Below are positions 2,565 through 64,000 of a stretch of 64,000 nucleotides of DNA, one piece after another. A program made the translations under genes and the position numbers. Numbering within the stretch: position 1 is the first letter of the stretch; every line of letters begins with the position of its first letter. The notes beneath the pieces are model-generated. The model was not told where the DNA came from. It saw only the letters and a list, made by a program, of their open reading frames with translations, and did no database searches. Source of the DNA: Plasmodiophora brassicae (taxonomy: Eukaryota); assembly GCA_036867785.1 (NCBI GenBank), contig CP145426.1, positions 496,001 through 560,000 of the forward strand, given 5' to 3'.

Positions 2565-4858
2565 TCACGAGACGTCCGGTTCACTCTGTGATGTCGTTGA
2601 CATCGTCGTCATGGCACCCTGGTTGAATTTGTCGCGAGCCTCGGTACGACGCGGGCGCGAGCGGTGACTGGGCCGCGATGCAATAGCGTCGCTTCGGGGT
2701 ATTGGCGTCGACGTAGGATACTGTAAACGCTGGTACATGGCGCCCGCGGGCAGCAAGACTTGCTGACCCGATAATGGACCCGTACCGGGGCCGAACGGGA
2801 CGACGGGTAGTGCTAATGGGGAACCAGGCGTCGGAGAGTTCCTCCTCCTGACACAAAAGGAAACGACGACGACAATGCAAAGGAAGCTGACGCCGGCGGC
2901 GGCTAATACGAACACCAGGAGAGTCGCATGATCGGTAACCCAGTGACTTAGGTCCTGCGGCGACGAAGACGGACCGTCTGTTTTCGTATGACCTTCTGAC
3001 GACGTCGTCGATCTGGGTAACGACGTCATAGACCTGTTTCTGGTTGTCGACGCGCGATAAGATGTGGACATCGCTGGTTTCTTGGTCGACAATGTCATGC
3101 CGACGCCGACAGGCAAACTGGACGCTCTCACTGTTGTCGACATCCTGGAACTGAATGTCCTCAGCGGCGGCGACTTCCTGGAGCCAGGTGTCCTCGTTGA
3201 CGACGCCTTCTTGGTCGATGTGGACACACGCCGGGTCTTCGTCGAGGGCAACTTGGCAACGGTGGTGCAGTTGATGGCAACTGAAAGGTGCTTGGTGGTA
3301 CCGGGACAGGGGTCCGAGCCGAACGTGGAAGCGGACGCCGTTAGTAGGCACGACGTCTTGCTGGTGCAAGCCTGTCTGACAACAGACACGCTGTGGTTGG
3401 AATTGCACGATCCGAGCGTGTACACGCCGGACTGTCCCGACGGGTTGCCGAACGACGCGAACAGCACGCTGGATATGATGGCGGGCGCTTTGCAGAATAG
3501 CGACAAGTACGCGCCTTCCACTGCGGTGCCGAACGTTCCACTGGAATCATCTGCCCGTGCAACATACCAGTCGTTGAGAATACAGCGCTCTATGGAGCTG
3601 ATCGAAACTTGCCAGGGGCACACAGGTTCGTACTGTATCCGGTGATCTTTGACGGAGGTTGTTTCGGCCAGCACACAATCTGCTGTGGCGCCCTGTATGT
3701 CCTGCAGGTACGCACTCGTCAGAGTTGTGCTTTACCCAGCATTCATCACGCGTGAGCAGTGTGGGCATACGTGACATCGGTCAGCATTGTCGCGTTGCGG
3801 AAAATGCCATACGGCAGGCGCATTAGCATGGGGCAGGCGTGAATCGCCCTGTACGCATACCATTAGCAACACGTCGCCCACAAAGGGAGTCATGAGACCG
3901 CTGACGACGAACAGGTGTCCGAGCGATGTGCTGTAATCGAAGAGACCATCAGGCAGGGATGCCAGTGGCGGGTTGGTGTCCAAGAACAGCGTCTGCAGGA
4001 GGGACTGCGCCCGGAGCGCGCCAGGCTCGATGAACTGGATCGAGTTCGTTCCGAAATTTCTGCGACGGGAACTTCGCATCAGGTTGCTGGCCAGCACAGA
4101 TGCCCGACGAACATGGTAATGAGCTGGCTGAGGGTCGACAGGGCGTTCGTCGGTATGGATGTCAACTGATTAATGCCGAAGTTACTGCGATATGACCACG
4201 AGTCAGCACCGTTCACGTGTGCCAATGGTCGGCTGCGGGGAATTACAAATCCGTCAGCGACGTACACGGGGCAAACAGACGTTCTGGCAGGGAGGTGAGC
4301 GAGTTCGTGCCCATGTCCACCGATTGCAGATTGGTCAGGCTCGCGAACGCCGCAGGTGAGCCTGGCAGCGAAGTGATCACGTTACCCTCCAGCGACCTAT
4401 TCACCATGATCGTCGGCATGGGGCGCACGGCTAGGTTAGGGGGTTTGGTACAGAGTGGTTAGCGCCGACATGCCCACAAACGTGCCGTTGTCGATACCAG
4501 TTAACTGACAGTACGTAATTGACCTGACGAAGGACAACAGCAGGCCGGGTCACAGTCCCAGCAACCCGAGACGCAGGTTGGAGGTTACACATAAGTGATA
4601 GACGACCGGGACCACAGGTTGAACCAAGCGCTGGTCAACATTCCACCCGCGGATGACTGGGCGTTTAGCGAACTGACATCCGTCGTTGATGAGCCACGAC
4701 GTCGGTGTGACGATGAGATGCAGGACGTACATGTAGGTGCTGCTGGTGCATGCGGTCGGATACCAATCACAGATGCACCCGTTCGCCTGCTTGCAATACG
4801 TTGCGAATCCTGGACAAAGCAATAACGCGACGTAAAGGGCGATGAGAACCTCACCCAT
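2565..4858 (-). CDS. LRR + SUEL/rhamnose-binding lectin + S/T stalk + TM surface protein, copy 2 (multi-exon)
   Basis: Signal peptide MGEVLIALYVALLLCPGFA, CKQANGCICDWY cap and LRR exons (SLEGNVITSLPG.., NFGINQLTSIPTNALSTLSQLITM, NFGTNSIQFIEPGAL). ORF 2565-3674 carries the lectin (LFASFGNPSG..CNS...ACTSKTSCLLTAS..FGSDPCPGTTKHLSVAINC), an S/T-rich stalk and TM LLVFVLAAAGVSFLCIVVVVSFCV. Confidence 0.82.
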
Positions 4859-5150
4859 TCTTCCTGGGACGGCGCTAGCGTGGGAGCGATGTCCGACAAT
4901 GACGGTCAGCGTGTGCACCACATGTGGCCGGCACTGTGAAGCCGAGCCCCGAGGGATGACAGCGGACATGACCCGCCCACCTAACCGACCCATCCGAGTG
5001 GTCAATTGCATCGTGTGTGAACTGCGTTGGCGTTTTATATTGGTAGGTGGTGCGATGGGCCTGGGATCGCCGACTTTCGCCGTTCCGCATCCATGCCGCA
5101 TCTGGAGAGGGAAACCGTCAGCGGGTCGTGCGTGTGTGTGTGTGGCAATA

Positions 5151-42372: not shown

Positions 42373-42549
42373 TTTAGTTAGTTTAGTTTAGTTTATTTGT
42401 GTTTCGCGCTTTTAACGCAGGCGCCTCGTTCTCGGATCCGAGGACCGTAGGGAGGCTCGCAGAACGCTCACTTTCCCCGACCTGGCAGAGCCGGTCTGTC
42501 ACCTCTGTTCTGGGGTCTTGCAGGGTGGCGGCTCCGGGGCGAGTCTAAG

Positions 42550-44482
42550 TGTGGAGAACTACCTGACAACGCTGGTGCACGACAGTGTGCGATGACTACC
42601 GATCACGCGGTGTATCGAGTAGACATGAGAATGCTGACTGAGGACCAGGGCGCGGCTGGTGAAGGCCTTGGTCTCGGAACGTGGCTTGGTGCCGGAAGGT
42701 GGCTAGATGCCGGAAGGTGAGTGGCGTGAGTCATGGTGGTGGAGATGACTCATGACATCATCCCCCGCCAAAAAGGGATGTGGGGGTGGAAGGTGCGCGT
42801 GATGAGCGGCTTGATGAGGTTGCGGGTCAAGTGAATCTTGATGGTGCGCGTGATGTGCGGCTTGATGTGATTGGGCTTGCTCGCAACTTGAGAACTGTGC
42901 GATCTGGCTGGAGACGCGGCTCATATTTGTTTCGGACTCGCAGAATCTGTGACAGGGTTCTGGAGTTGCGGGTGAGAGAAGTGTCGGGAGCTGCTTCGGA
43001 CCTGGATGTTGACACGTTCAGTGTCGGAGATGGCACACTTCTGGGCCATTGTTGAGTGTAAATTTGCTTGTCCGCGCTTGGGCGGCGATATCAATGCCGT
43101 GGACGTCAAGAAAACGAGTGGATGTGCATTCGTGGCGGTGATGCCGCTAGGTCTGTTCGATGGCAGTCGGTGATGTCGTTACCGTGGGCGATGCCGATGA
43201 CGTTGCCATATACGCTGGGACGTTCAGAGCCGGAGTGGCACATTCCTGGGCTGAGACTGATTGATGCGGATGATGAGGGTGGCGAGGAGCCGGTTGAAGT
43301 CGTTGAGTGGAGGTCGATGAGACCGATTGATACAGATGATGAGGGTGGCGTGGAGCCGGTAGGACCGTCGGTGATGTCGTTACCATGGACGATGGCGATA
43401 TCGTTGCCATATACGTTGGGATGTTCAGCGCCGGAGACGGCTGAGACCGATTGATGCGGATGATGAGGGTGGCGTGGAGCCGGTAGGACCGTCGGTGATG
43501 TCGTTACCGAGGACGATGGCGATGTCGTTGCCATATACGTTGGGATGTTCAGCGCCGGAGACGGCTGAGACCAATTGATGCGGATGATGAGGGTGGCGTG
43601 GAGCCGGTAGGACCGTCGGTGATGTCGTTACCGAGGACGATGGCGATGTCGTTGCCATATACGTTGGGATGTTCAGCGCCGGAGACGGCTGAGACCCATT
43701 GATGCGGATGATGAGGGTGGCGTGGAGCCGGTAATGCCGCTGGAGAAGACTTTGTAGAAAACTCTACCCAGGGCAGGCTAGGAGGGTCGTAAGAGGCGCC
43801 GTTCACTAGGGATCGTGAACGACGTGCAGATGTGGCTGACGGAAGATCTGCGCTTGTAGACAGTTGCGTCTGGAAGTTGAACAATAGAACTCGTGGAACC
43901 TCGGGAGATTCGCGGGCAGAGGTACCCAGTACGGTGAATGCGGAACGGGGGCGACGGCTGGAATGGTGCCGGTTGTTGTGCCGGAAGAGCGACTTCCATG
44001 TGGATGAAAGTCTCCCCGATGATGTCGGGTACCGGCCGGTGGATTTGCGTCCGGCGCGGATGGTACGGTTCTGAACCGGGGGTCGTGTTGATGACGGCGC
44101 TTGACGATATCCTGCATGGAGTCAGCGGGCGCATGCGGGTATCTAGCGTGTCGTGCATCGCGCTGTTGCTTGTTGGAGAGGCCGTGCTTGTCGGACCTCA
44201 ATGATCGCGCGGAAGAGGATATGGTTAGGAGCCCTTTTCTCCACCTTCGTGTCGGTTGGTTCATCGCAAAAAAATGTGGAGAACTACCTGACAACGCTGG
44301 TGCACGACAGTGTGCGATGACTACCGATCACGCGGTGTATCGAGTAGACATGAGAATGCTGACTGAGGACCAGGGCGCGGCTGGTGAAGGCCTTGGTCTC
44401 GGAACGTGGCTTGGTGCCGGAAGGTGGCTAGATGCCGGAAGGTGAGTGGCGTGAGTCATGGTGGTGGAGATGACTCATGACA
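42550..44482 (-). mobile_element. Non-autonomous LTR retroelement (TRIM/LARD-like, 1933 bp) inserted in the LINE 3' UTR
   Basis: Apparently identical 208-bp TG...CA LTRs (42550-42757, 44275-44482); TSD CTAAG (42545-42549, 44483-44487); minus-strand PPT ggcgggggatga next to the left LTR; no recognisable pol domains. Confidence 0.92.
43167..43732. repeat. 124-bp tandem repeat (about 3 good units plus a degenerate one) inside the LTR element
   Basis: Unit gatgcggatgatgagggtggcgtggagccggtaggaccgtcggtgatgtcgttacc...ctgagacc recurs at ~43329, 43453, 43577 and 43701. Confidence 0.9.
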
Positions 44483-46550: not shown

Positions 46551-47429
46551 CCACCACGGGAAGATGAATTTGCATGACGGGGACGAAATTTTTGCATGGC
46601 GGGGACATAATTTTTGCATGACGGGGAACAAATTGAAGGATGGCGGGGAACACAACGAATGGATGGCGGGGAAGAAATGCGTCGATGAGTGGCCCAAAAT
46701 AAATGGATCGGCTCGGGACGGACGAGCGGGCCCCCTCACTGTGTACCTACCGTACCGTTGCAGGACGACGTCACCAGAACAATGGCAGGGATACAACCGA
46801 TAACGGTAAGCGGATACCGTACAGTATCGCCGACGTACCTACCGTACCGTATTCTGACTTCATATCCCACGGTAGGTAGGAGGGTTGCAATCGTCGCAGA
46901 CGTCCGCTCGTAGGCGAGTCGGTCGTCCTGCGATGAACCCGGAGCGGATTCCTCGTTTGGACCCTACAATCGCGTCGGACCCTAGGCTCTGTGAAATCGA
47001 CTTTACGACACCGGTTGCAAGGATCCAGAACGCCGCTGAGCAACGCCGCCTGGAAGAACAGTGTCGAATCGCTCGCGAAAAAGCTCGGCAGCGCGCATAC
47101 CAGCAATTGCAGCAAATGGAGAGCGCTGCTGACCATGTTCGGGCTGTTGCTGACAGGGCGATCGACCGCATCCATCAAGTCGCCGACCGAAAACGACGCT
47201 TCGCTGACGAATTGGTCGAGTGGCAGGCCCGACTGTCGGCCGACGAAGTCGCTGTCGAATCTGTTCCAGAGCGATTTCGTAAGGCTCTTCTCCCGCGGAA
47301 GCCACACGTCGACGAAGACGAAGATCGTATTATGCATGCTCTTGACGGCAAGCGATCGCAGGTGGAGATCGCACGCTGAGAAGGACAATAATGAAGTGGA
47401 TGTATTACGTACGGCGTGTGCGGCGGACG

Positions 47430-50400
47430 TTACAGTGGCGACGTAGTCGCCGACGGTGTAACGGTTGCCAACGCCGGCGGGCACGGAGTCGCGGAGTGCG
47501 TGACGGCGTTCACGTGCTGCAGGCATGTGCTGCTGGTCGTAGTGGATACGTTGTTCGACACGCCCCCTCCAGCAGCACACGGCCTGGGACTTGTGTCGAT
47601 GATGCCGGCCAGGAGCAGGTTCGCATGATACGAGGTGCTGAGAGCGGGCTTCGTGAGGTAGTCTGCAGCCATCTCGGCGGACGGGCACTTGTGGACCACG
47701 ATCAAACTGGCCTCGACGGCCTCCCGGGTGTAGTGAAACTGCACCTCGATGTCCTTCGTGCGATCATCCATCCGACGATAGCCAGACCAGGCCTTCGCGC
47801 CTTGATTGTCCTCGTATACGATCGTCGGACTGGAGCGTGCGAAGCCGATTTCGGTCAGGAATGACCGGATCCAGGCCAGCTGGCGGGTAACAGCACACAG
47901 CGACTTGATCTCTGCATGTGTGGACGATAAGCTAACTTTGACTGCGCCCAGGTCTTGGCGACGTGACTGCCAGTGCACGGGGCCGCCAGCCAGCAGGATG
48001 ATGTGGCCGGAGCGCGACCGTCGCGTGTCAGGGTCGGATGCCCAATCAGCGTCGGCGTATGCGATCAGACGATCTTCGGGCTGGCGTTCGTATCGGATGC
48101 CGTGCGTCATGGTGCCGGCGAGGTACTTAAGAACGCGTTGCCCCGCACGCCAATGCTGGATGCCGGGATTCGAGGAGAATTGGGCCAGTACATTCGTTAT
48201 GTACGCGATGTCGGGACGGCATCGATGGGCGAGCCATGTCAGGCAGCCAATAAGTTTGAGGTACGGCTTGGTCGCCATTTCGTCACGGTCGAGGTCGCTT
48301 TGTGGACTCATTGTCGTTGATAGGTGAACGCCAGGCTGGTGCGGCGTGTCGACCGGATGACAATGCGACATGTTGAAGTCGCTCAACACCTTCTCGATGT
48401 ACTCGGCTTGGTCAAGGGTGATGGCGCCGGTGCCAGGTTCGCGGCGGATGCGCATGCCAAGCAGGGTCGACGGTTCACCTTGATCGGTGATCTCGGCCAT
48501 CGTGGAGAGCTTCTCGAGAACGGATTCCGCGAACGGGACGTCATTGTACGCCAGCAGACCGTCGTCGGTGTGCACCGACATGATCATGAACTTTCCATCG
48601 CGATCGTACCGGAAGACGCAGGGGTCCGCGATGATCGATTCGAATCCGAGTGATAACAGCATCTCCCGAAGCGTCTTGTACCAACGTTCGGCGCCTTGTT
48701 TCGTTCCATAAAGGGCCTTTTGCAGTTGACGAACTCGGTACGGGACGTGATGATCGGTGAAGCCATCCGGCTGACGAATGTAAACATCATGGAGCATGTC
48801 GGCGTTCAGGTATGCGGCCACCCAGTCGACCTGGCGAAGATGCAGGCCGTGCTGCGCCGCGAGCGCTAGGATAACGAGGAACGCAGTGGCACGGGCGGTC
48901 GGCGCGAACGTATCGTCGAAGTCGATGCCGGGGCGTTGTCGGAAGCCCTGAGCACAGAGTCGGGCGGTGAACTTGCGGATGCCACCGTTGCCACTGAGCG
49001 AGGACTTCACTCGGAACACCCACTTGGCGCCAACAGCGATCTTACTTTTCGGCAGGTCGATTAGCGGGCCGAACGTGTCCTTGGCGTCCAGTGTTGCCAT
49101 CTGGGTGACGGCGGCGTCCCACCAGTGGCCAGCGAAAGGTGATGAGAGGGCATCGGCCATTGAGTTGGGTACGGGAATGTCGGTCGCTTTCAGCTTCGAC
49201 AGGTCGGGTCGTGGTAGACGGGCTGGGTCGATCGGGGCGGATACCTTGGCTCGACATGCCTTGGCAGCTGCGCCGCGACATGTCGGACGGTTGGACCTGA
49301 TGGCCTGATCGATCAGACGGCGCTCCTCAACCTGCTGCCAATGCCGGATCAGTCGGCGGGAGCGACGAGGAGGGCGCTGTGTCGGGAACGTTAGGGTCGG
49401 ATTCTGGAACCAGGCGTCGACCGTCGAGGACCACCGTGTCGACGAACGATTGGCCGCCTCCGGCGCCTTCCACCATTCACCAGGCGGTTGACGACGACGA
49501 TTCGATCGGCGAGGGCGTGGCACGTCGATGACATTGTGGTCAACGATATCAGCAGCATCGGAATTGTCGTGGACGTCGGGGTCGGCAGCTTCGTTGGGAG
49601 AGTCGTTGCTGGACGCCGAACCTTCGTAGTCGGGATCATCTTCAGCGTCATCATCATCTTCGTCGGTGGATACGTCATCAGGAGACGGTGAGCGCGACGG
49701 TCGGACGATCTCGGAAGGCGATGACGCAGCGGCAGGTGACGGAGGCTCGGGAGGGGATGCTGCGAGAGAGGATGCTGACGTCGATGGTAGAGGTGCCATG
49801 ACGGCGTCGGAAGAGACGGGCGTCGGGACGATCGTGTCAACGTTCGGCGCAGAGCTCGACTCGGGACTGGACGGTGGCGCTGATGATGAACTAGCAGGGC
49901 TGGATCTTCCAAAGCCGAATGTGAACGAGGTCTCCAGGAACTCGGCAGTCGTGCTCTCGAACGTGTCTTCCCGGTCCACGTCGTAGAACCGCCAAGCCTT
50001 CATGCCGGGCGTGAAACCGATAAACACAGCGCGAACACGACGAGGCTCCAACTTGCTCGGCTTCTTCGTGGCTGGATGCGGTCGCATGGCATAGGCATCG
50101 CAACCGTAGACACGAAGGGCCGAGATGTTAGGTAGGGCGCGACGAGCAGCCTCGAACGATGTGCGACGCCCGGGAAGGACTGATCTGGGGTGGATGTTGT
50201 ACAGTATCGCAGAGTAGGACAGCGACCAGGGCCACGTGGAGTCAGGCATGCGAGAGTGGCACCGGATTGAGCTTTCGATACCGCAGAGCGTGTGGTTGAC
50301 GCTTTCAGCGCGGCCGTTCTGCTCGGGCGTGTACGGGACAGATTTGCGGTGCAGGATGCCGGACTCGTTGTAGAACAGGACGCACGCCTTGGAGTTGTAC

Positions 50401-52385
50401 TCGCCGCCACCGTCGGTCTGGAACGTCCGGATACCACGTCCTTCCTGGTTGCGAAGACGCGCGTCATAGTGCTTGATGACGTCGAGCGCCTCCGATTTGC
50501 GACGTAGCAGATAGACGGACAGGTACCGAGAGGAATCGTCCAGCATGGTCTGGTAGTACTCAAAGCCGCCGACACCGACGACAGGCCACCGTCCGGACAG
50601 ATCGCTATGGACGAGATCGCCAACACGACGCGCGCGCGACGTACTGGGAGGGAATGATGACCGTTTGCCCTTGGCGAGTAAACATGCAGCGCATGGACAT
50701 CGATCTTGCGGCCTCGGGATTGGCCCGTCGAACTTCATGCCACGACAACGTTTGTGCAGGATGCGCAGGTTGCCGTAACCCAGGTGGCCGGTTCGAGCGT
50801 GCCAGACAGCTGGAGCTGCGGCGGTGACCTTAGCGACGCGGCATGAGACGCTGGATGCGATCAAGGAGCAGACTCGGGCAGAGTGAAGTGTGCCGGGCGC
50901 GGAGGTTGGAGCGGATAATGGAATCCGGTACAGGTTATCGTGTCCTCGTTGACTGACGGCCACTGGCTGACCGACGGGCGCCGTCCAGTTGGCCCCCGAG
51001 TAGATCTTCGCGGTATCGCCGTCGAACACGATCTTGTGACCTGATCTGGTGAGCTGGCCAACTGATACTAGCGCTTGGCCAAGTCGGGGAACGTGCAGCG
51101 AATCGATACTCGTCGCCTGGACATCCATGCCGAATGACGTCACGCCTCGACCGGAAGTGGTCGTACGCGACAGATCGGCTAGCTCAACTTCCGGTCCGGT
51201 GCCTTGGCGATAGCAGCTGAGATGTCGGCGCAGGGGCGTCATCGTCGTGGAACACGCTGAGTCCAGTAGGCCTACTGAGTTCGCGTACACGTCGATGGCG
51301 TGGCGTGCCGACAAAGCACGCATCGGCTCGGGCGCCGGATCGATCGGATGAGCGCCAGACGTTGGATACTCGTTGGACGTTGGTGAGGATGTATTGCTTT
51401 TCGCGTTGCTGTCGCGGTACCAGATGTGTCGTTGCAGCGTGCATTCGCCGTTAGTGTGCTTGGATCCGGGATGGAAGACGCAGGACTCGTTGCGTCGTGG
51501 TCCACGGGGACGCGTCGATGTGGCGCAACTGGAGCGGTTGGCCGTTTGGAACGCGTCGTGTCGGTCCCGCACGTCTTGGACCCTGATCTCCTCGCTTGTC
51601 AACGACCCGACGACCTCGGAGACACTGGGCAGCGTGTCCAGAGCACGATTGTGCAGGCCAGCGACGACGGCGTCGAGATCGGATGATGCGTTGGCCAAGA
51701 TGAGGACGGCGACCAATGCGTCGGTGAGGGACAGCATCTCGGTCGGTACCGTCGACCGGACGCGATGAGCCGCTGCTTGAACTCGGGCGGCGTACGTGGC
51801 GACCGACTCGCCGGGCATGTGCTGGACCGTGACGAGGTCGCGGACGGCGCGCACGACCGATGCCAGCGACGACGGGCTGTACGCCTGGAACAGCACGCGC
51901 CAGCACTTGGCAGCCGAGCCTGCCTGAAACAAAGACAATGCGGACGCGATCTTGTGGTCCAGCATGTGGACGAGTAGAATCTCGCGCGCGGCTGCCTCGA
52001 GAGCTGGGTCGTGTGCCGTACCGGTTGTCGCAGTCGGCGAGCCATCTTCGTTGATCCCGATGACGTCCGCGTACCCACGATTGCGAAACCAGAGTGCAGC
52101 TGTCTGAACCCAGGACGTGAACGAGTCGGGAGTACCGTCGAACTTGGGCATGGGCAGTCGGCCTGCGTCGCTTCGGCTGTGCGCCTCGGCGATGATCGGC
52201 ATGGCCGGGGTCGATGGACAGCTGGTCGGACGCGCCAGCTGCTGCTGCAGGACACGGAGACGGTCGATCTTCTCCTGCCTGGCGATCGTTGCCTCCGCTT
52301 CGGCAATTCGGGTGTCGATCTCCTCGAGCGACAGATGACGCAGCGGGTCGTCATCCGTGTTAGGCGTCGCCTGGCGCTCGGCCAT
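47430..52385 (-). CDS. Copia gag-pol polyprotein, 1651 aa
   Basis: Gag knuckle CVFHPGSKHTNGEC, protease LLDSACS, WHARTGH..CAAC, integrase VHSDL/TDGGGEY/QNGRAE, RT ARLCAQGF..KALYGTKQ..VHTDD, RNase H YADADWA..ADYLTK. The IN-before-RT order defines Copia. Confidence 0.96.
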   Translation of the reverse strand: MAERQATPNTDDDPLRHLSLEEIDTRIAEAEATIARQEKIDRLRVLQQQLARPTSCPSTPAMPIIAEAHSRSDAGRLPMPKFDGTPDSFTSWVQTAALWFRNRGYADVIGINEDGSPTATTGTAHDPALEAAAREILLVHMLDHKIASALSLFQAGSAAKCWRVLFQAYSPSSLASVVRAVRDLVTVQHMPGESVATYAARVQAAAHRVRSTVPTEMLSLTDALVAVLILANASSDLDAVVAGLHNRALDTLPSVSEVVGSLTSEEIRVQDVRDRHDAFQTANRSSCATSTRPRGPRRNESCVFHPGSKHTNGECTLQRHIWYRDSNAKSNTSSPTSNEYPTSGAHPIDPAPEPMRALSARHAIDVYANSVGLLDSACSTTMTPLRRHLSCYRQGTGPEVELADLSRTTTSGRGVTSFGMDVQATSIDSLHVPRLGQALVSVGQLTRSGHKIVFDGDTAKIYSGANWTAPVGQPVAVSQRGHDNLYRIPLSAPTSAPGTLHSARVCSLIASSVSCRVAKVTAAAPAVWHARTGHLGYGNLRILHKRCRGMKFDGPIPRPQDRCPCAACLLAKGKRSSFPPSTSRARRVGDLVHSDLSGRWPVVGVGGFEYYQTMLDDSSRYLSVYLLRRKSEALDVIKHYDARLRNQEGRGIRTFQTDGGGEYNSKACVLFYNESGILHRKSVPYTPEQNGRAESVNHTLCGIESSIRCHSRMPDSTWPWSLSYSAILYNIHPRSVLPGRRTSFEAARRALPNISALRVYGCDAYAMRPHPATKKPSKLEPRRVRAVFIGFTPGMKAWRFYDVDREDTFESTTAEFLETSFTFGFGRSSPASSSSAPPSSPESSSAPNVDTIVPTPVSSDAVMAPLPSTSASSLAASPPEPPSPAAASSPSEIVRPSRSPSPDDVSTDEDDDDAEDDPDYEGSASSNDSPNEAADPDVHDNSDAADIVDHNVIDVPRPRRSNRRRQPPGEWWKAPEAANRSSTRWSSTVDAWFQNPTLTFPTQRPPRRSRRLIRHWQQVEERRLIDQAIRSNRPTCRGAAAKACRAKVSAPIDPARLPRPDLSKLKATDIPVPNSMADALSSPFAGHWWDAAVTQMATLDAKDTFGPLIDLPKSKIAVGAKWVFRVKSSLSGNGGIRKFTARLCAQGFRQRPGIDFDDTFAPTARATAFLVILALAAQHGLHLRQVDWVAAYLNADMLHDVYIRQPDGFTDHHVPYRVRQLQKALYGTKQGAERWYKTLREMLLSLGFESIIADPCVFRYDRDGKFMIMSVHTDDGLLAYNDVPFAESVLEKLSTMAEITDQGEPSTLLGMRIRREPGTGAITLDQAEYIEKVLSDFNMSHCHPVDTPHQPGVHLSTTMSPQSDLDRDEMATKPYLKLIGCLTWLAHRCRPDIAYITNVLAQFSSNPGIQHWRAGQRVLKYLAGTMTHGIRYERQPEDRLIAYADADWASDPDTRRSRSGHIILLAGGPVHWQSRRQDLGAVKVSLSSTHAEIKSLCAVTRQLAWIRSFLTEIGFARSSPTIVYEDNQGAKAWSGYRRMDDRTKDIEVQFHYTREAVEASLIVVHKCPSAEMAADYLTKPALSTSYHANLLLAGIIDTSPRPCAAGGGVSNNVSTTTSSTCLQHVNAVTHSATPCPPALATVTPSATTSPL

Positions 52386-52416
52386 GGCGAGTAGAGGCTC
52401 AGCGCCTGCGCCTATA

Positions 52417-52428
52417 CGACTGTTAATC
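52417..52428 (-). promoter_or_regulatory. Putative primer-binding site GATTAACAGTCG, complementary to the tRNA-Asn(GUU) anticodon arm
   Basis: Abuts the 5' LTR; the plus strand reads CGACT-GTT-AATC, a tRNA-Asn anticodon stem-loop sequence. Confidence 0.7.
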
Positions 52429-54002
52429 TGAGAAGGACAATAATGAAGTGGATGTATTACGTACGGCGTGTGCGGCGGACGTTACAGTGGCGACGTAGTC
52501 GCCGACGGTGTAACGGTTGCCAACGCCGGCGGGCACGGAGTCGCGGAGTGCGTGACGGCGTTCACGTGCTGCAGGCATGTGCTGCTGGTCGTAGTGGATA
52601 CGTTGTTCGACACACGCGAGGTCGGCTGTGCTCAGTCAACGGTCTCCCGTCATTTGAACGGGGTATCGCAAGCCCGCGACGGTGCTGCTCGAGGCCGACC
52701 GCGGAAGCTGTCGGATGAGATGTTGAATGCTGCAGCGCGATTCATGTTTCTGCTCCCTGGTGCGACACTGACACTTGCAGCCGCGTTTCTCCAGTTGTCC
52801 TACCATGTCGTCGTGTCCCGGAAGACTCTTGGTATACACTTGCGGCGTAGGGCAGGGTTCCGCCTTGGTGACTTCAAAACCTTCCACGTACAACGCAATG
52901 CGCCAGAAACAATCGACAATCGGTTCAGATACATTGCCCGTCTGGAGTCGGAAGAATATCGCCGGAAGTTCGGCCCGAACCCGCTCTATGACGCGATCTA
53001 CTACGATGAGATGCCACTGGCTCGGATTGCCAACCGAAAAATCTGGTCCGTTCGCGGTTGGATTCCGTCTCTGGTTGAAGAATCGGTCAGAGGACGCCAC
53101 GTTTCGCTTCTGCTTGCTGTGAGCCCAGCAGTTGGGGTTGTATGGTACGAAGTTCTCGATAAGACAATTGATGGTGACGCGTTCCTCGCTTTTTGCAACA
53201 ACTTGGTCAAATCGTATGTGAATACTTCCAGGAATAGTCGCCCACGGCTGTTCATTTCGGATAATGCTCGATTTCACCATGCTCGCTCGGTGGAGGCCTT
53301 TTTCGGACGCGACGAGGTCGCTCGCCACCTTGTCCTTGAGTTCCTTCCGCCATATTCGCCCTTTCTCGATCCCTGTGAAGAACTGTTCGCGCTTATTAAG
53401 ATCCGTATATGGCTCAATTGGATTGCCGGTTCCTCGGACGAGCGGTCACTTGCAAGCAGCAAGCAAGCACTAGTAGAAGAAGTTCGGCAAATAACAACAG
53501 ACGATATCCGTCAGACGTACGACCACATGAGGGAATTCCTATCGTATTGCAAGGACCGGCGACCTGTCTTCACCAAAAAGTTGTACGACTGTGCACACCA
53601 TGGAGACGAGGAGCGGATGTGTCCGACGGGATCTTTGGAAGTGGATGATTTACTGAACAGTTACCTGCCCCAGTTTTATGAGGAGTTTACACCGAGCCGT
53701 TGTCAGCATCTTCGTGATATGTTTGGTTGTTCACGACTGACTAAAGACATCGTCGAGCGGTTCTACGACGCACAGGTGCGTTCTCCGGGAGGCGGCGGCG
53801 CCCATGGCACTGTTCGCTGAGCCGCCGCCACGCGCACGCACCTAACGCTCCAGCAATCGGTTCCAGAGAGACAAAATACATGCACCACGATCCATTATTT
53901 TTGTGCTCGTCATCCTTCAATTTGTTCCCCGTCATGCAAAAATTATGTCCCCGCCATGCAAAAGTTTCGTCCCCGTCATGCAAATTCATCTTCCCGTGGT
54001 GG

Positions 54003-59652: not shown

Positions 59653-59975
59653 CAAGCAGCCCCATTAGGGGTCTCGCTTGAGCGTCTGGGAGGTAAAGGA
59701 ACGGCCCGTAACAAGTGTATGTCGGCTCCCCGGCATAGGCGGTATGGCGAAAGAGGTCCGATAAGAGTGCAGTCGACAAGTCCGAACGAATCACGTCCCG
59801 TTTCGATATCGACCAAGGCGCGATGAACCCAGTACAAAGGTGATGGGCCAGCACTGCCAGGCCGGGGGATGTTGGCGTTCTGCTGCTGAACCTTCGATTC
59901 TCGGACTCGAGACCGAGGTGCCTACGTGAAAAAGTGCGAAAAACAAATAAAACTCAACTCAACTCAACTCAACTC
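59653..59975 (+). mobile_element. Short non-LTR retroelement copy with (AACTC)n tail
   Basis: Near-identical to 63728-64000 and homologous to 8884-9126; ends in aaataaaactcaactcaactcaactcaactc. Confidence 0.82.
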
Positions 59976-63727: not shown

Positions 63728-64000
63728 CAAGCAGCCCAAAGTGCCAGAGACATTAGGGGTCTCGCTTGAGCGTCTGGGAGGTAAAGGAACGGCCCGTAAC
63801 AAGTGTATGTCGGCTCCCCGGCATAGGCGGTATGGCGAAAGAGGTCCGATAAGAGTGCAGTCGACAAGTCCGAGCGAATCACGTCCCCGTTCCGATATCG
63901 TCCAAGGCGCGATGAACCCAGTACAAAGGTGACGGGCCGGCACGGCCAGGCCGGGGGATGTTGGCGTTCTGCTGCTGAACCTTCGATCCTCAGACTCGAG
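63728..64000 (+). mobile_element. Another copy of the short non-LTR retroelement (runs off window; 5' limit uncertain)
   Basis: cattaggggtctcgcttgagcgtctgggaggtaaaggaacggcccg... is near-identical to 59661-59910. Confidence 0.82.

Follow-up and report, generated by a model that had tools for sequence, protein, structure and literature searches.

A Ty1/copia element of Plasmodiophora brassicae with a candidate primer binding site for a half-molecule of tRNA-Asn(GUU)

The window, the whole 64-kb stretch of DNA of the clubroot protist Plasmodiophora brassicae analysed here (G+C 51-65%), contains a complete Ty1/copia element on the minus strand at 47377-52612 (Table 1). A repeat search of the window returned two direct repeats of 186 nt that are 100% identical, at 47376-47561 and 52428-52613, with a spacing of 5052 nt. 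Read on the minus strand, these resolve into 184-bp long terminal repeats (LTRs) with TG...CA ends, TG lying at 52612/52611 and CA at 52430/52429 in the 5' copy. The element combines the features of the Ty1/copia group: TG...CA LTRs, a 5-bp target site duplication (TSD), the domain order gag-protease-integrase-RT and a polypurine tract (PPT). Its single open reading frame extends 131 nt into the 3' LTR and matches the Pfam families Retrotran_gag_2 (residues 133-271), Pol_BBD (Pol beta-barrel of the protease region, 373-449), gag_pre-integrs (511-572), rve (590-687), SH3_retrovirus and RVT_2 (1108-1349), with no separate Pfam match to RNase H in the 1651 residues. A partial protein on record from P. 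brassicae, PBRA_001014, is 99% identical to this reading frame, and a second protein of the same species, PBRA_009598, is 57% identical. The element had been predicted to be young and intact, and the 100% identical LTRs, the 5-bp TSD and the 1651-aa frame agree with this; it is apparently a recent insertion, competent by appearance, with activity suggested by the identical LTRs and the intact frame.

Table 1. Features of the Copia element and its surroundings (positions in the window; "-" strand features are read on the minus strand)
Feature	Position	Strand	Evidence
TSD, 5' copy, GCGTG (minus-strand reading)	52613-52617	-	pentamer repeated at 47376-47372
5' LTR, 184 bp, TG...CA	52429-52612	-	identical repeat; contig loose ends (X18) at 52429
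Putative primer binding site (PBS) GATTAACAGTCG, complement of an Asn(GUU)-type arm, nt 29-40; maybe extending to 52415 (14 nt, GATTAACAGTCGTA)	52417-52428	-	
Putative leader intron, 53 nt, GTACGTAA...TCGTATAG	52412-52464	-	contig joints X1, X2, X18; GT..AG
Single ORF gag-PR-IN-RT(-RH), 1651 aa (P0001)	47430-52385	-	Pfam domains
Polypurine tract GGAGGGGG, 2 nt 5' of the 3' LTR	47563-47570	-	sequence reading
3' LTR	47377-47560	-	100% identical repeat
TSD, 3' copy	47372-47376	-	sequence reading
Interrupted DDE_3 transposase frame, right part	52613-53817	+	Pfam DDE_3, E 1.5e-15; 567-codon frame once the element is removed
Interrupted transposase frame, left part	~46876-47371	+	

Deletion of the element in silico restores a plus-strand frame of 567 codons across the insertion site, which, together with the DDE_3 match in the right part of this frame, indicates that the Copia element is nested, in antisense orientation, in a DNA transposon. 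Contigs of four public runs (X1, X2, X3 and X18), whose kind we guessed to be RNA, were placed on positions 47000-53000. One X18 contig joins 47371 to 52613 with five shared letters, as in an uninterrupted target with a single copy of the TSD, and its first 252 nt are without a match on the window. This junction may come from an empty allele or from a paralogue of the host DNA transposon that carries no insertion, both being possible since that transposon may have further copies. Whichever the source, the junction confirms a precise insertion of the integrase type, and it is for insertion precision alone, rather than as proof of polymorphism, that we use it.

Contigs of all four runs also carry two GT..AG joints on the plus strand, at 47886-47950 and 48259-48322 (65 and 63 nt), in antisense orientation to the stretch of the element that encodes pol/RNase H. 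Transcription reading through from the disrupted transposase gene on the plus strand could account for these joints, as could an antisense transcript from the element family.

The window holds further repeats. A 124-nt unit is repeated in tandem at least three times, with 90-100% identity, at 43309-43753, between the members of a 211-nt repeat pair at 42547-42757 and 44272-44482. Another pair, at 59663-59911 and 63751-64000, consists of repeats of about 250 nt that lie 4088 nt apart, are 94-98% identical and lack TG...CA ends; a 637-aa frame between them runs off the end of the window. A search of the window with six motifs of other PBS types, allowing at most one mismatch, found no second element with a recognisable site.

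The 12-mer GATTAACAGTCG (52428-52417) directly adjoins the CA end of the 5' LTR and is followed by TA, with the gag ATG at 52385. The trinucleotide TGG is absent throughout the 43-nt leader by reading of the sequence, so the leader offers no place for the CCA end of a tRNA to pair. The original prediction had placed a PBS immediately behind the 5' LTR with no canonical TGG-type site, and in both respects the leader is as it described. In the 64-kb window the 12-mer has one exact occurrence, and with up to two mismatches it is found at four sites against 4.07 expected; near-matches at this chance level indicate that it is not a general repeat. It is the position and the conservation of the site, and not its count in the window, that argue against a chance resemblance. 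Self-priming of the Tf1 type requires a complement of the PBS near the transcript start. Three inverted repeats were found in 52370-52625, none of which involves 52417-52428 or ties the site to the LTR, and a Tf1-like mechanism, with no inverted repeat linking the PBS to the LTR, is thus unsupported.

In contigs of X2 and X3, one sequence matches the LTR and exactly the 14 nt that follow it (GATTAACAGTCGTA) and then departs from the window at 52415. Sharing both LTR and PBS with the element, it may come from a variant or from a non-autonomous relative. Among the contig pieces listed, none spans 52411-52583, and invariance of the PBS among copies or isolates is not claimed here.

Read as RNA, the complement of the PBS is CGA-CUGUUAA-UC, which can be laid out as an anticodon arm with a 7-nt loop. 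In tRNA numbering, the loop would comprise C32, U33, the anticodon GUU, A37 and A38, U33 and A37 thus flanking GUU, and it would be closed by the pairs A31:U39 and G30:C40. The Asn(GUU) arm shape that had been proposed for this complement is thereby recovered. The anticodon complement within the PBS is AAC, corresponding to GUU and Asn, and not the ATG of initiator tRNA-Met. To judge from its letters, the site beside the 5' LTR would pair with an anticodon stem-loop rather than with a CCA end, which is the geometry of half-tRNA priming.

ARAGORN found no tRNA gene in the 64-kb window and no tRNA-Asn in 80 related loci (described below), where the sole tRNA was one tRNA-Arg, in L078. As a stand-in, prokaryotic genomes were scanned for the 14-mer TACGACTGTTAATC, which gave at least 120 matching stretches. 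Among the matches listed, two lie inside tRNA genes; both genes are tRNA-Asn(gtt) from archaea of the Thermoplasmatota, in which the 14-mer occupies gene positions 28-41 and the arm reads TACGA/CTGTTAA/TCGTA. The other 118 of the 120 listed fall outside tRNA genes, and the 14-mer alone is accordingly not specific to tRNAs. The two archaeal cases demonstrate that genuine tRNA-Asn genes can have an arm of this kind; these examples are archaeal only, and P. brassicae may differ. Searching the literature for the letters of the arm turned up nothing evidently relevant to eukaryotic tRNA-Asn. The anticodon arms of eukaryotic tRNA-Asn vary between taxa, so a stem mismatch of two letters between the PBS and the tRNA-Asn of P. 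brassicae is possible.

Relatives of the element were sought by a locus search with an alignment of four proteins, which yielded 80 metagenome contigs; the same query in viral_contigs gave 43 pattern matches, none of which was confirmed as a relative. Several of the short metagenome contigs have identical ends, which we read as collapse of the LTRs, with one LTR and the leader lying inside the contig. The closest relative with DNA is L001, whose RT-RH region is 58% identical to that of the window element. It reads ...TTCTCA-TA-GATTAACAGTCGA-ATGG and thus carries the same 12-mer, 2 nt past an LTR-like end and shortly ahead of the ATG of gag. The 13-mer AGATTAACAGTCG is common to both elements, while around the conserved 12-mer the rest of the leader and the LTR have diverged. 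After the 12 shared nucleotides of the site the two split at the 13th (T in the window, A in L001), which suggests that the duplex between PBS and tRNA is short. In L001 the site is set off from the LTR-like end by two extra bases, and the conservation of the Asn-type site comes from this one independent relative. The start of the L001 contig (1-130) is a diverged LTR-like copy with no PBS behind it, in contrast to the second copy at 4130-4246, after which come the PBS and the start of gag. This duplicated stretch may be a tandem arrangement or a chimeric assembly.

Two further relatives, L002 and L004, carry GATTAAGAGTCCCA, a Lys(CUU)-type site, where the window element and L001 have the Asn-type site. 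L002 reads ...TCTAACA-GATTAAGAGTCCCACT, 18 nt ahead of its ATG, and L004 reads ...GTTTA-GATTAAGAGTCCCAAC within a non-coding stretch after pol, the LTR end of L004 being undefined. When about 100 nt of LTR end and leader of the four elements are aligned, the sole invariant block is AGATTAA[C/G]AGTC. Between the Asn-type and Lys-type pairs the anticodon letter changes in concert with those of the stem (GTCG versus GTCCCA), and this co-variation points to two different tRNA templates rather than to drift from one. Conservation among related Copia elements, to which the original prediction had looked, is therefore split: L001 has the same 12-mer, and L002 and L004 have the Lys(CUU) version in the same place. 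In L004, the leader from the Lys-type site to the gag ATG (~2620-2910) contains about seven tandem units of about 40 nt (...catatatacacttaggtgtaca...).

A maximum-likelihood tree of the RT-RH region, built with a careful search from 40 rows comprising the window element and metagenome loci only, joins the window element and L001 with support of 100/100, and these two with L002 and L004 with support of 100/99. The Asn-type and Lys-type pairs are sisters without a resolved outgroup, which leaves the direction of the switch unreadable from the tree. Among other loci of the search, L048, L056, L065 and L069 have CA|GGTTATGAGCCC or GGTTATGGGCCC, a half site of initiator tRNA-Met in the same register. 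The agreement in register that had been noted between the window site and initiator-Met half sites is seen, for instance, in L069, where CA is followed directly by GGTTATGAGCCC. L021 (5979) and L023 (512, 6547) have the anticodon-arm-like site GATTATGAGACTT after CATT, which by our reading looks like an elongator-Met arm, and L020 (~5107-5125) and L022 (~295-315) have the arm-like site GTTATAACCTTGG right after CA, which may correspond to an arm of Ile(UAU) type whose end is at nt 39. The ordinary site TGGTATCAGAGC is present in 13 of the 40 rows. PBS type clusters on the tree, with 6 changes against a mean of 11.6 for shuffled labels and none of 200 shuffles reaching so low a number; the 15 rows without an assignable site were kept unlabelled in this test.

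The contigs of the public runs add a feature that overlaps the PBS. Contigs of three of the four runs (X1, X2 and X18) skip 53 nt, 52412-52464 or 52411-52463, the joint running from 52410 to 52464, and on the sense strand of the element the skipped segment begins with GT and ends with AG. This putative intron would take in the terminal 36 nt of the LTR (52464-52429), the whole PBS and the next 5 nt of the leader. The shorter sides of the joint measure only 20-30 nt, and the interval is flagged as 'between: not known'; a transcription start near 52490 could explain the short sides. The contigs suggest a leader intron whose removal would take the PBS with it, which we regard as a lead and not as a result. 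The PBS sits near the 3' end of the putative intron and contains TTAAC, which we take to fit the branch-point consensus. With the site so placed, part of its conservation in the window element could have another cause than priming.

The best explanation of these observations, and in our judgement a likely one, is that the element is primed by a half-molecule of tRNA-Asn(GUU). Minus-strand DNA synthesis would start from the 5' part of the tRNA and not from its CCA end, the primer having its 3' end in the 3' strand of the anticodon stem at about nt 40, as in copia and Ty5. The 12 nt behind the 5' LTR would pair with C29-C40 of tRNA-Asn, for which the expected partner in tRNA-Asn(GTT) at nt 29-40 is CGACTGTTAATC, and elongation at C40 would give strong-stop DNA, a copy of U5 and R. 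We infer that the arm is present in the tRNA-Asn of the host, that this tRNA also occurs in a truncated form and that the truncated form serves as primer. This reading is favoured by the anatomy of the element, the position of the PBS, the absence of TGG and of a self-complement, the conservation of the site and the co-variation between Asn-type and Lys-type sites.

The close kinship with Lys-type elements raises the question of whether another tRNA half-molecule, above all that of Lys(CUU), is used with mismatches, the Asn-like appearance being that of a drifted Lys-type PBS. The core of the site in the sisters L002 and L004 is indeed one anticodon-complement letter away from that of the window element, and the fungal FunCo1 Copia elements carry ATTAAGAGTCT. 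Against this stand three differences in 14 nt between the window site and the Lys-type site, one in the anticodon and two in the stem. L001 shares both core changes, in the anticodon and in one stem letter, and has a letter of its own at the third position, a pattern of co-variation. A crippled PBS would moreover be unexpected in an element whose LTRs are identical and whose frame is intact, and we hold the use of a mismatched Lys primer to be very unlikely. A chance resemblance of a random 12-mer beside the LTR to a tRNA-Asn arm seems more improbable still. Such a 12-mer is short, 118 of the 120 prokaryotic 14-mer matches listed lie outside tRNAs, and the fit was judged from arm geometry rather than from the host tRNA; but 13 nt are identical in L001 at the homologous place within otherwise diverged DNA, for which our own arithmetic gives a probability of the order of 1e-4 that two random 100-mers share a 13-mer, and the register is the one common to the Lys-type and iMet-type sites.

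The putative intron bears on a different alternative, in which the conserved block is some other cis element of the leader (a branch site or the 3' part of an intron, or a packaging or dimerisation signal), with priming taking place elsewhere or from an unknown primer. The 53-nt GT..AG joint on the sense strand, which covers the block in contigs of three of the four runs, and our reading of TTAAC would both suit this explanation. The interval between the LTR and the ATG, however, holds no other PBS candidate, with neither TGG nor a self-complement, and the anticodon-arm geometry is kept in all four related elements with two different anticodons; on inspection, L001, L002 and L004 have no obvious matching GT..AG around the block. 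We consider this explanation unlikely, if less so than either a mismatched Lys primer or chance.

Priming by a half-molecule of tRNA-Asn can be extended to a joint reading that is more speculative and, taken as a whole, rather doubtful: a primer swap inside a single clade of protist Copia elements, between Lys(CUU) and Asn(GUU) with the nt-40 register of the cut kept, an activity that recognises the shape of the arm, and an intron that sorts transcripts. If it were true, the primer-making activity would recognise the shape of the anticodon arm rather than one tRNA, and splicing would sort transcripts into messengers without a PBS and PBS-bearing genomes for reverse transcription. A scheme in which all half-tRNA primers are decoders of ANN codons (U36 and t6A37: iMet, Met, Ile, Lys and Asn), which would suggest a single nuclease determinant, was rejected because anticodon-loop PBSs of Tyr and Asp are given in the accessible part of Kojima 2024 (PMC10886601).

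Half-tRNA priming is a known style, probably met here with a less common tRNA, and it does not amount to a new mechanism, since plant and fungal elements have already been inferred to use truncated tRNAs other than tRNA-Met. Should the tRNA-Asn primer be real, as seems likely to us, a rhizarian plant pathogen and tRNA-Asn would join the Copia lineages with truncated-tRNA priming. Our literature search, which was thin on subscription journals and did not take in supplements, found no report of a half-tRNA PBS in plasmodiophorids or other Rhizaria, and that of the window element is apparently the first in a plasmodiophorid. The Asn-type site and its Lys-type sisters form a clean pair for studying switches in primer choice. 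Transposable elements of P. brassicae are reported, in the part of a preprint that is accessible, to concentrate structural variation (bioRxiv 10.64898/2026.10.14.759018), and the window element is probably active in this species, to judge from its sequence.

Drosophila copia and yeast Ty5 (Hemivirus, Pseudoviridae) are among the known systems closest in manner of priming, and experimental proof of priming by a half-molecule of initiator tRNA-Met is said to exist for both. As in these elements, the PBS of the window element abuts the 5' LTR and fits the anticodon stem-loop, which would allow priming by no more than a short 5' piece of the tRNA, and the register stops about 4 nt past the anticodon. 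They differ in the tRNA, which is initiator tRNA-Met in copia and Ty5 and would be Asn with anticodon GUU (AAC in the PBS) in the window element, and in that the present case concerns a rhizarian host and is read from sequence. The likeness to the genus Hemivirus is one of priming type, our tree containing no named hemiviruses. For priming in copia and Ty5, the accessible text of Kojima 2024 (PMC10886601) cites Kikuchi 1986 and Ke 1999.

The original prediction had held that priming from the anticodon arm was not known to be described for a tRNA other than tRNA-Met, and on this point the literature contradicts it. According to the part of Donnart et al. 2017 (PMC5445492) available, the FunCo1 PBS ATTAAGAGTCT is the complement of a stretch within tRNA-Lys. 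The sisters of the window element, L002 and L004, carry GATTAAGAGTC, and the window site is one letter from that core; the FunCo1 sequence itself is not found in them, the window element reading ATTAACAGTCG and L002 and L004 reading ATTAAGAGTCC. The comparison with FunCo1 is by PBS alone, and the tRNA is Lys(CUU) there and Asn(GUU) here.

In the sections of Neumann et al. 2019 (PMC6317226) at hand, half-tRNA PBSs are given for Copia lineages only, with 1/2tRNA-Met in Osser, Bryco and part of Gymco-II and 1/2tRNA-Ile in Bianca, and tRNA-Asn appears solely among the PBSs for tRNA 3' ends, in 2% of elements. Bianca resembles the window element in that a half tRNA other than tRNA-Met is assigned to a Ty1/copia lineage, for which, in the same sections, PBS type is characteristic; the tRNA is Ile in Bianca, and in the window element it would be Asn. 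Kojima 2024 (PMC10886601), as far as its text is accessible, describes anticodon-loop PBSs of Tyr, Ile, Asp and iMet in Helenus and Copia families of rust fungi and, in one statement, has tRNA-Asn-GTT chosen once; the text is inconsistent here, giving Asp in two places and "Asn-GTT" in one. Helenus elements and their Copia partners reside in fungal hosts, and Helenus is non-autonomous, whereas the element described here is autonomous and resides in a plasmodiophorid.
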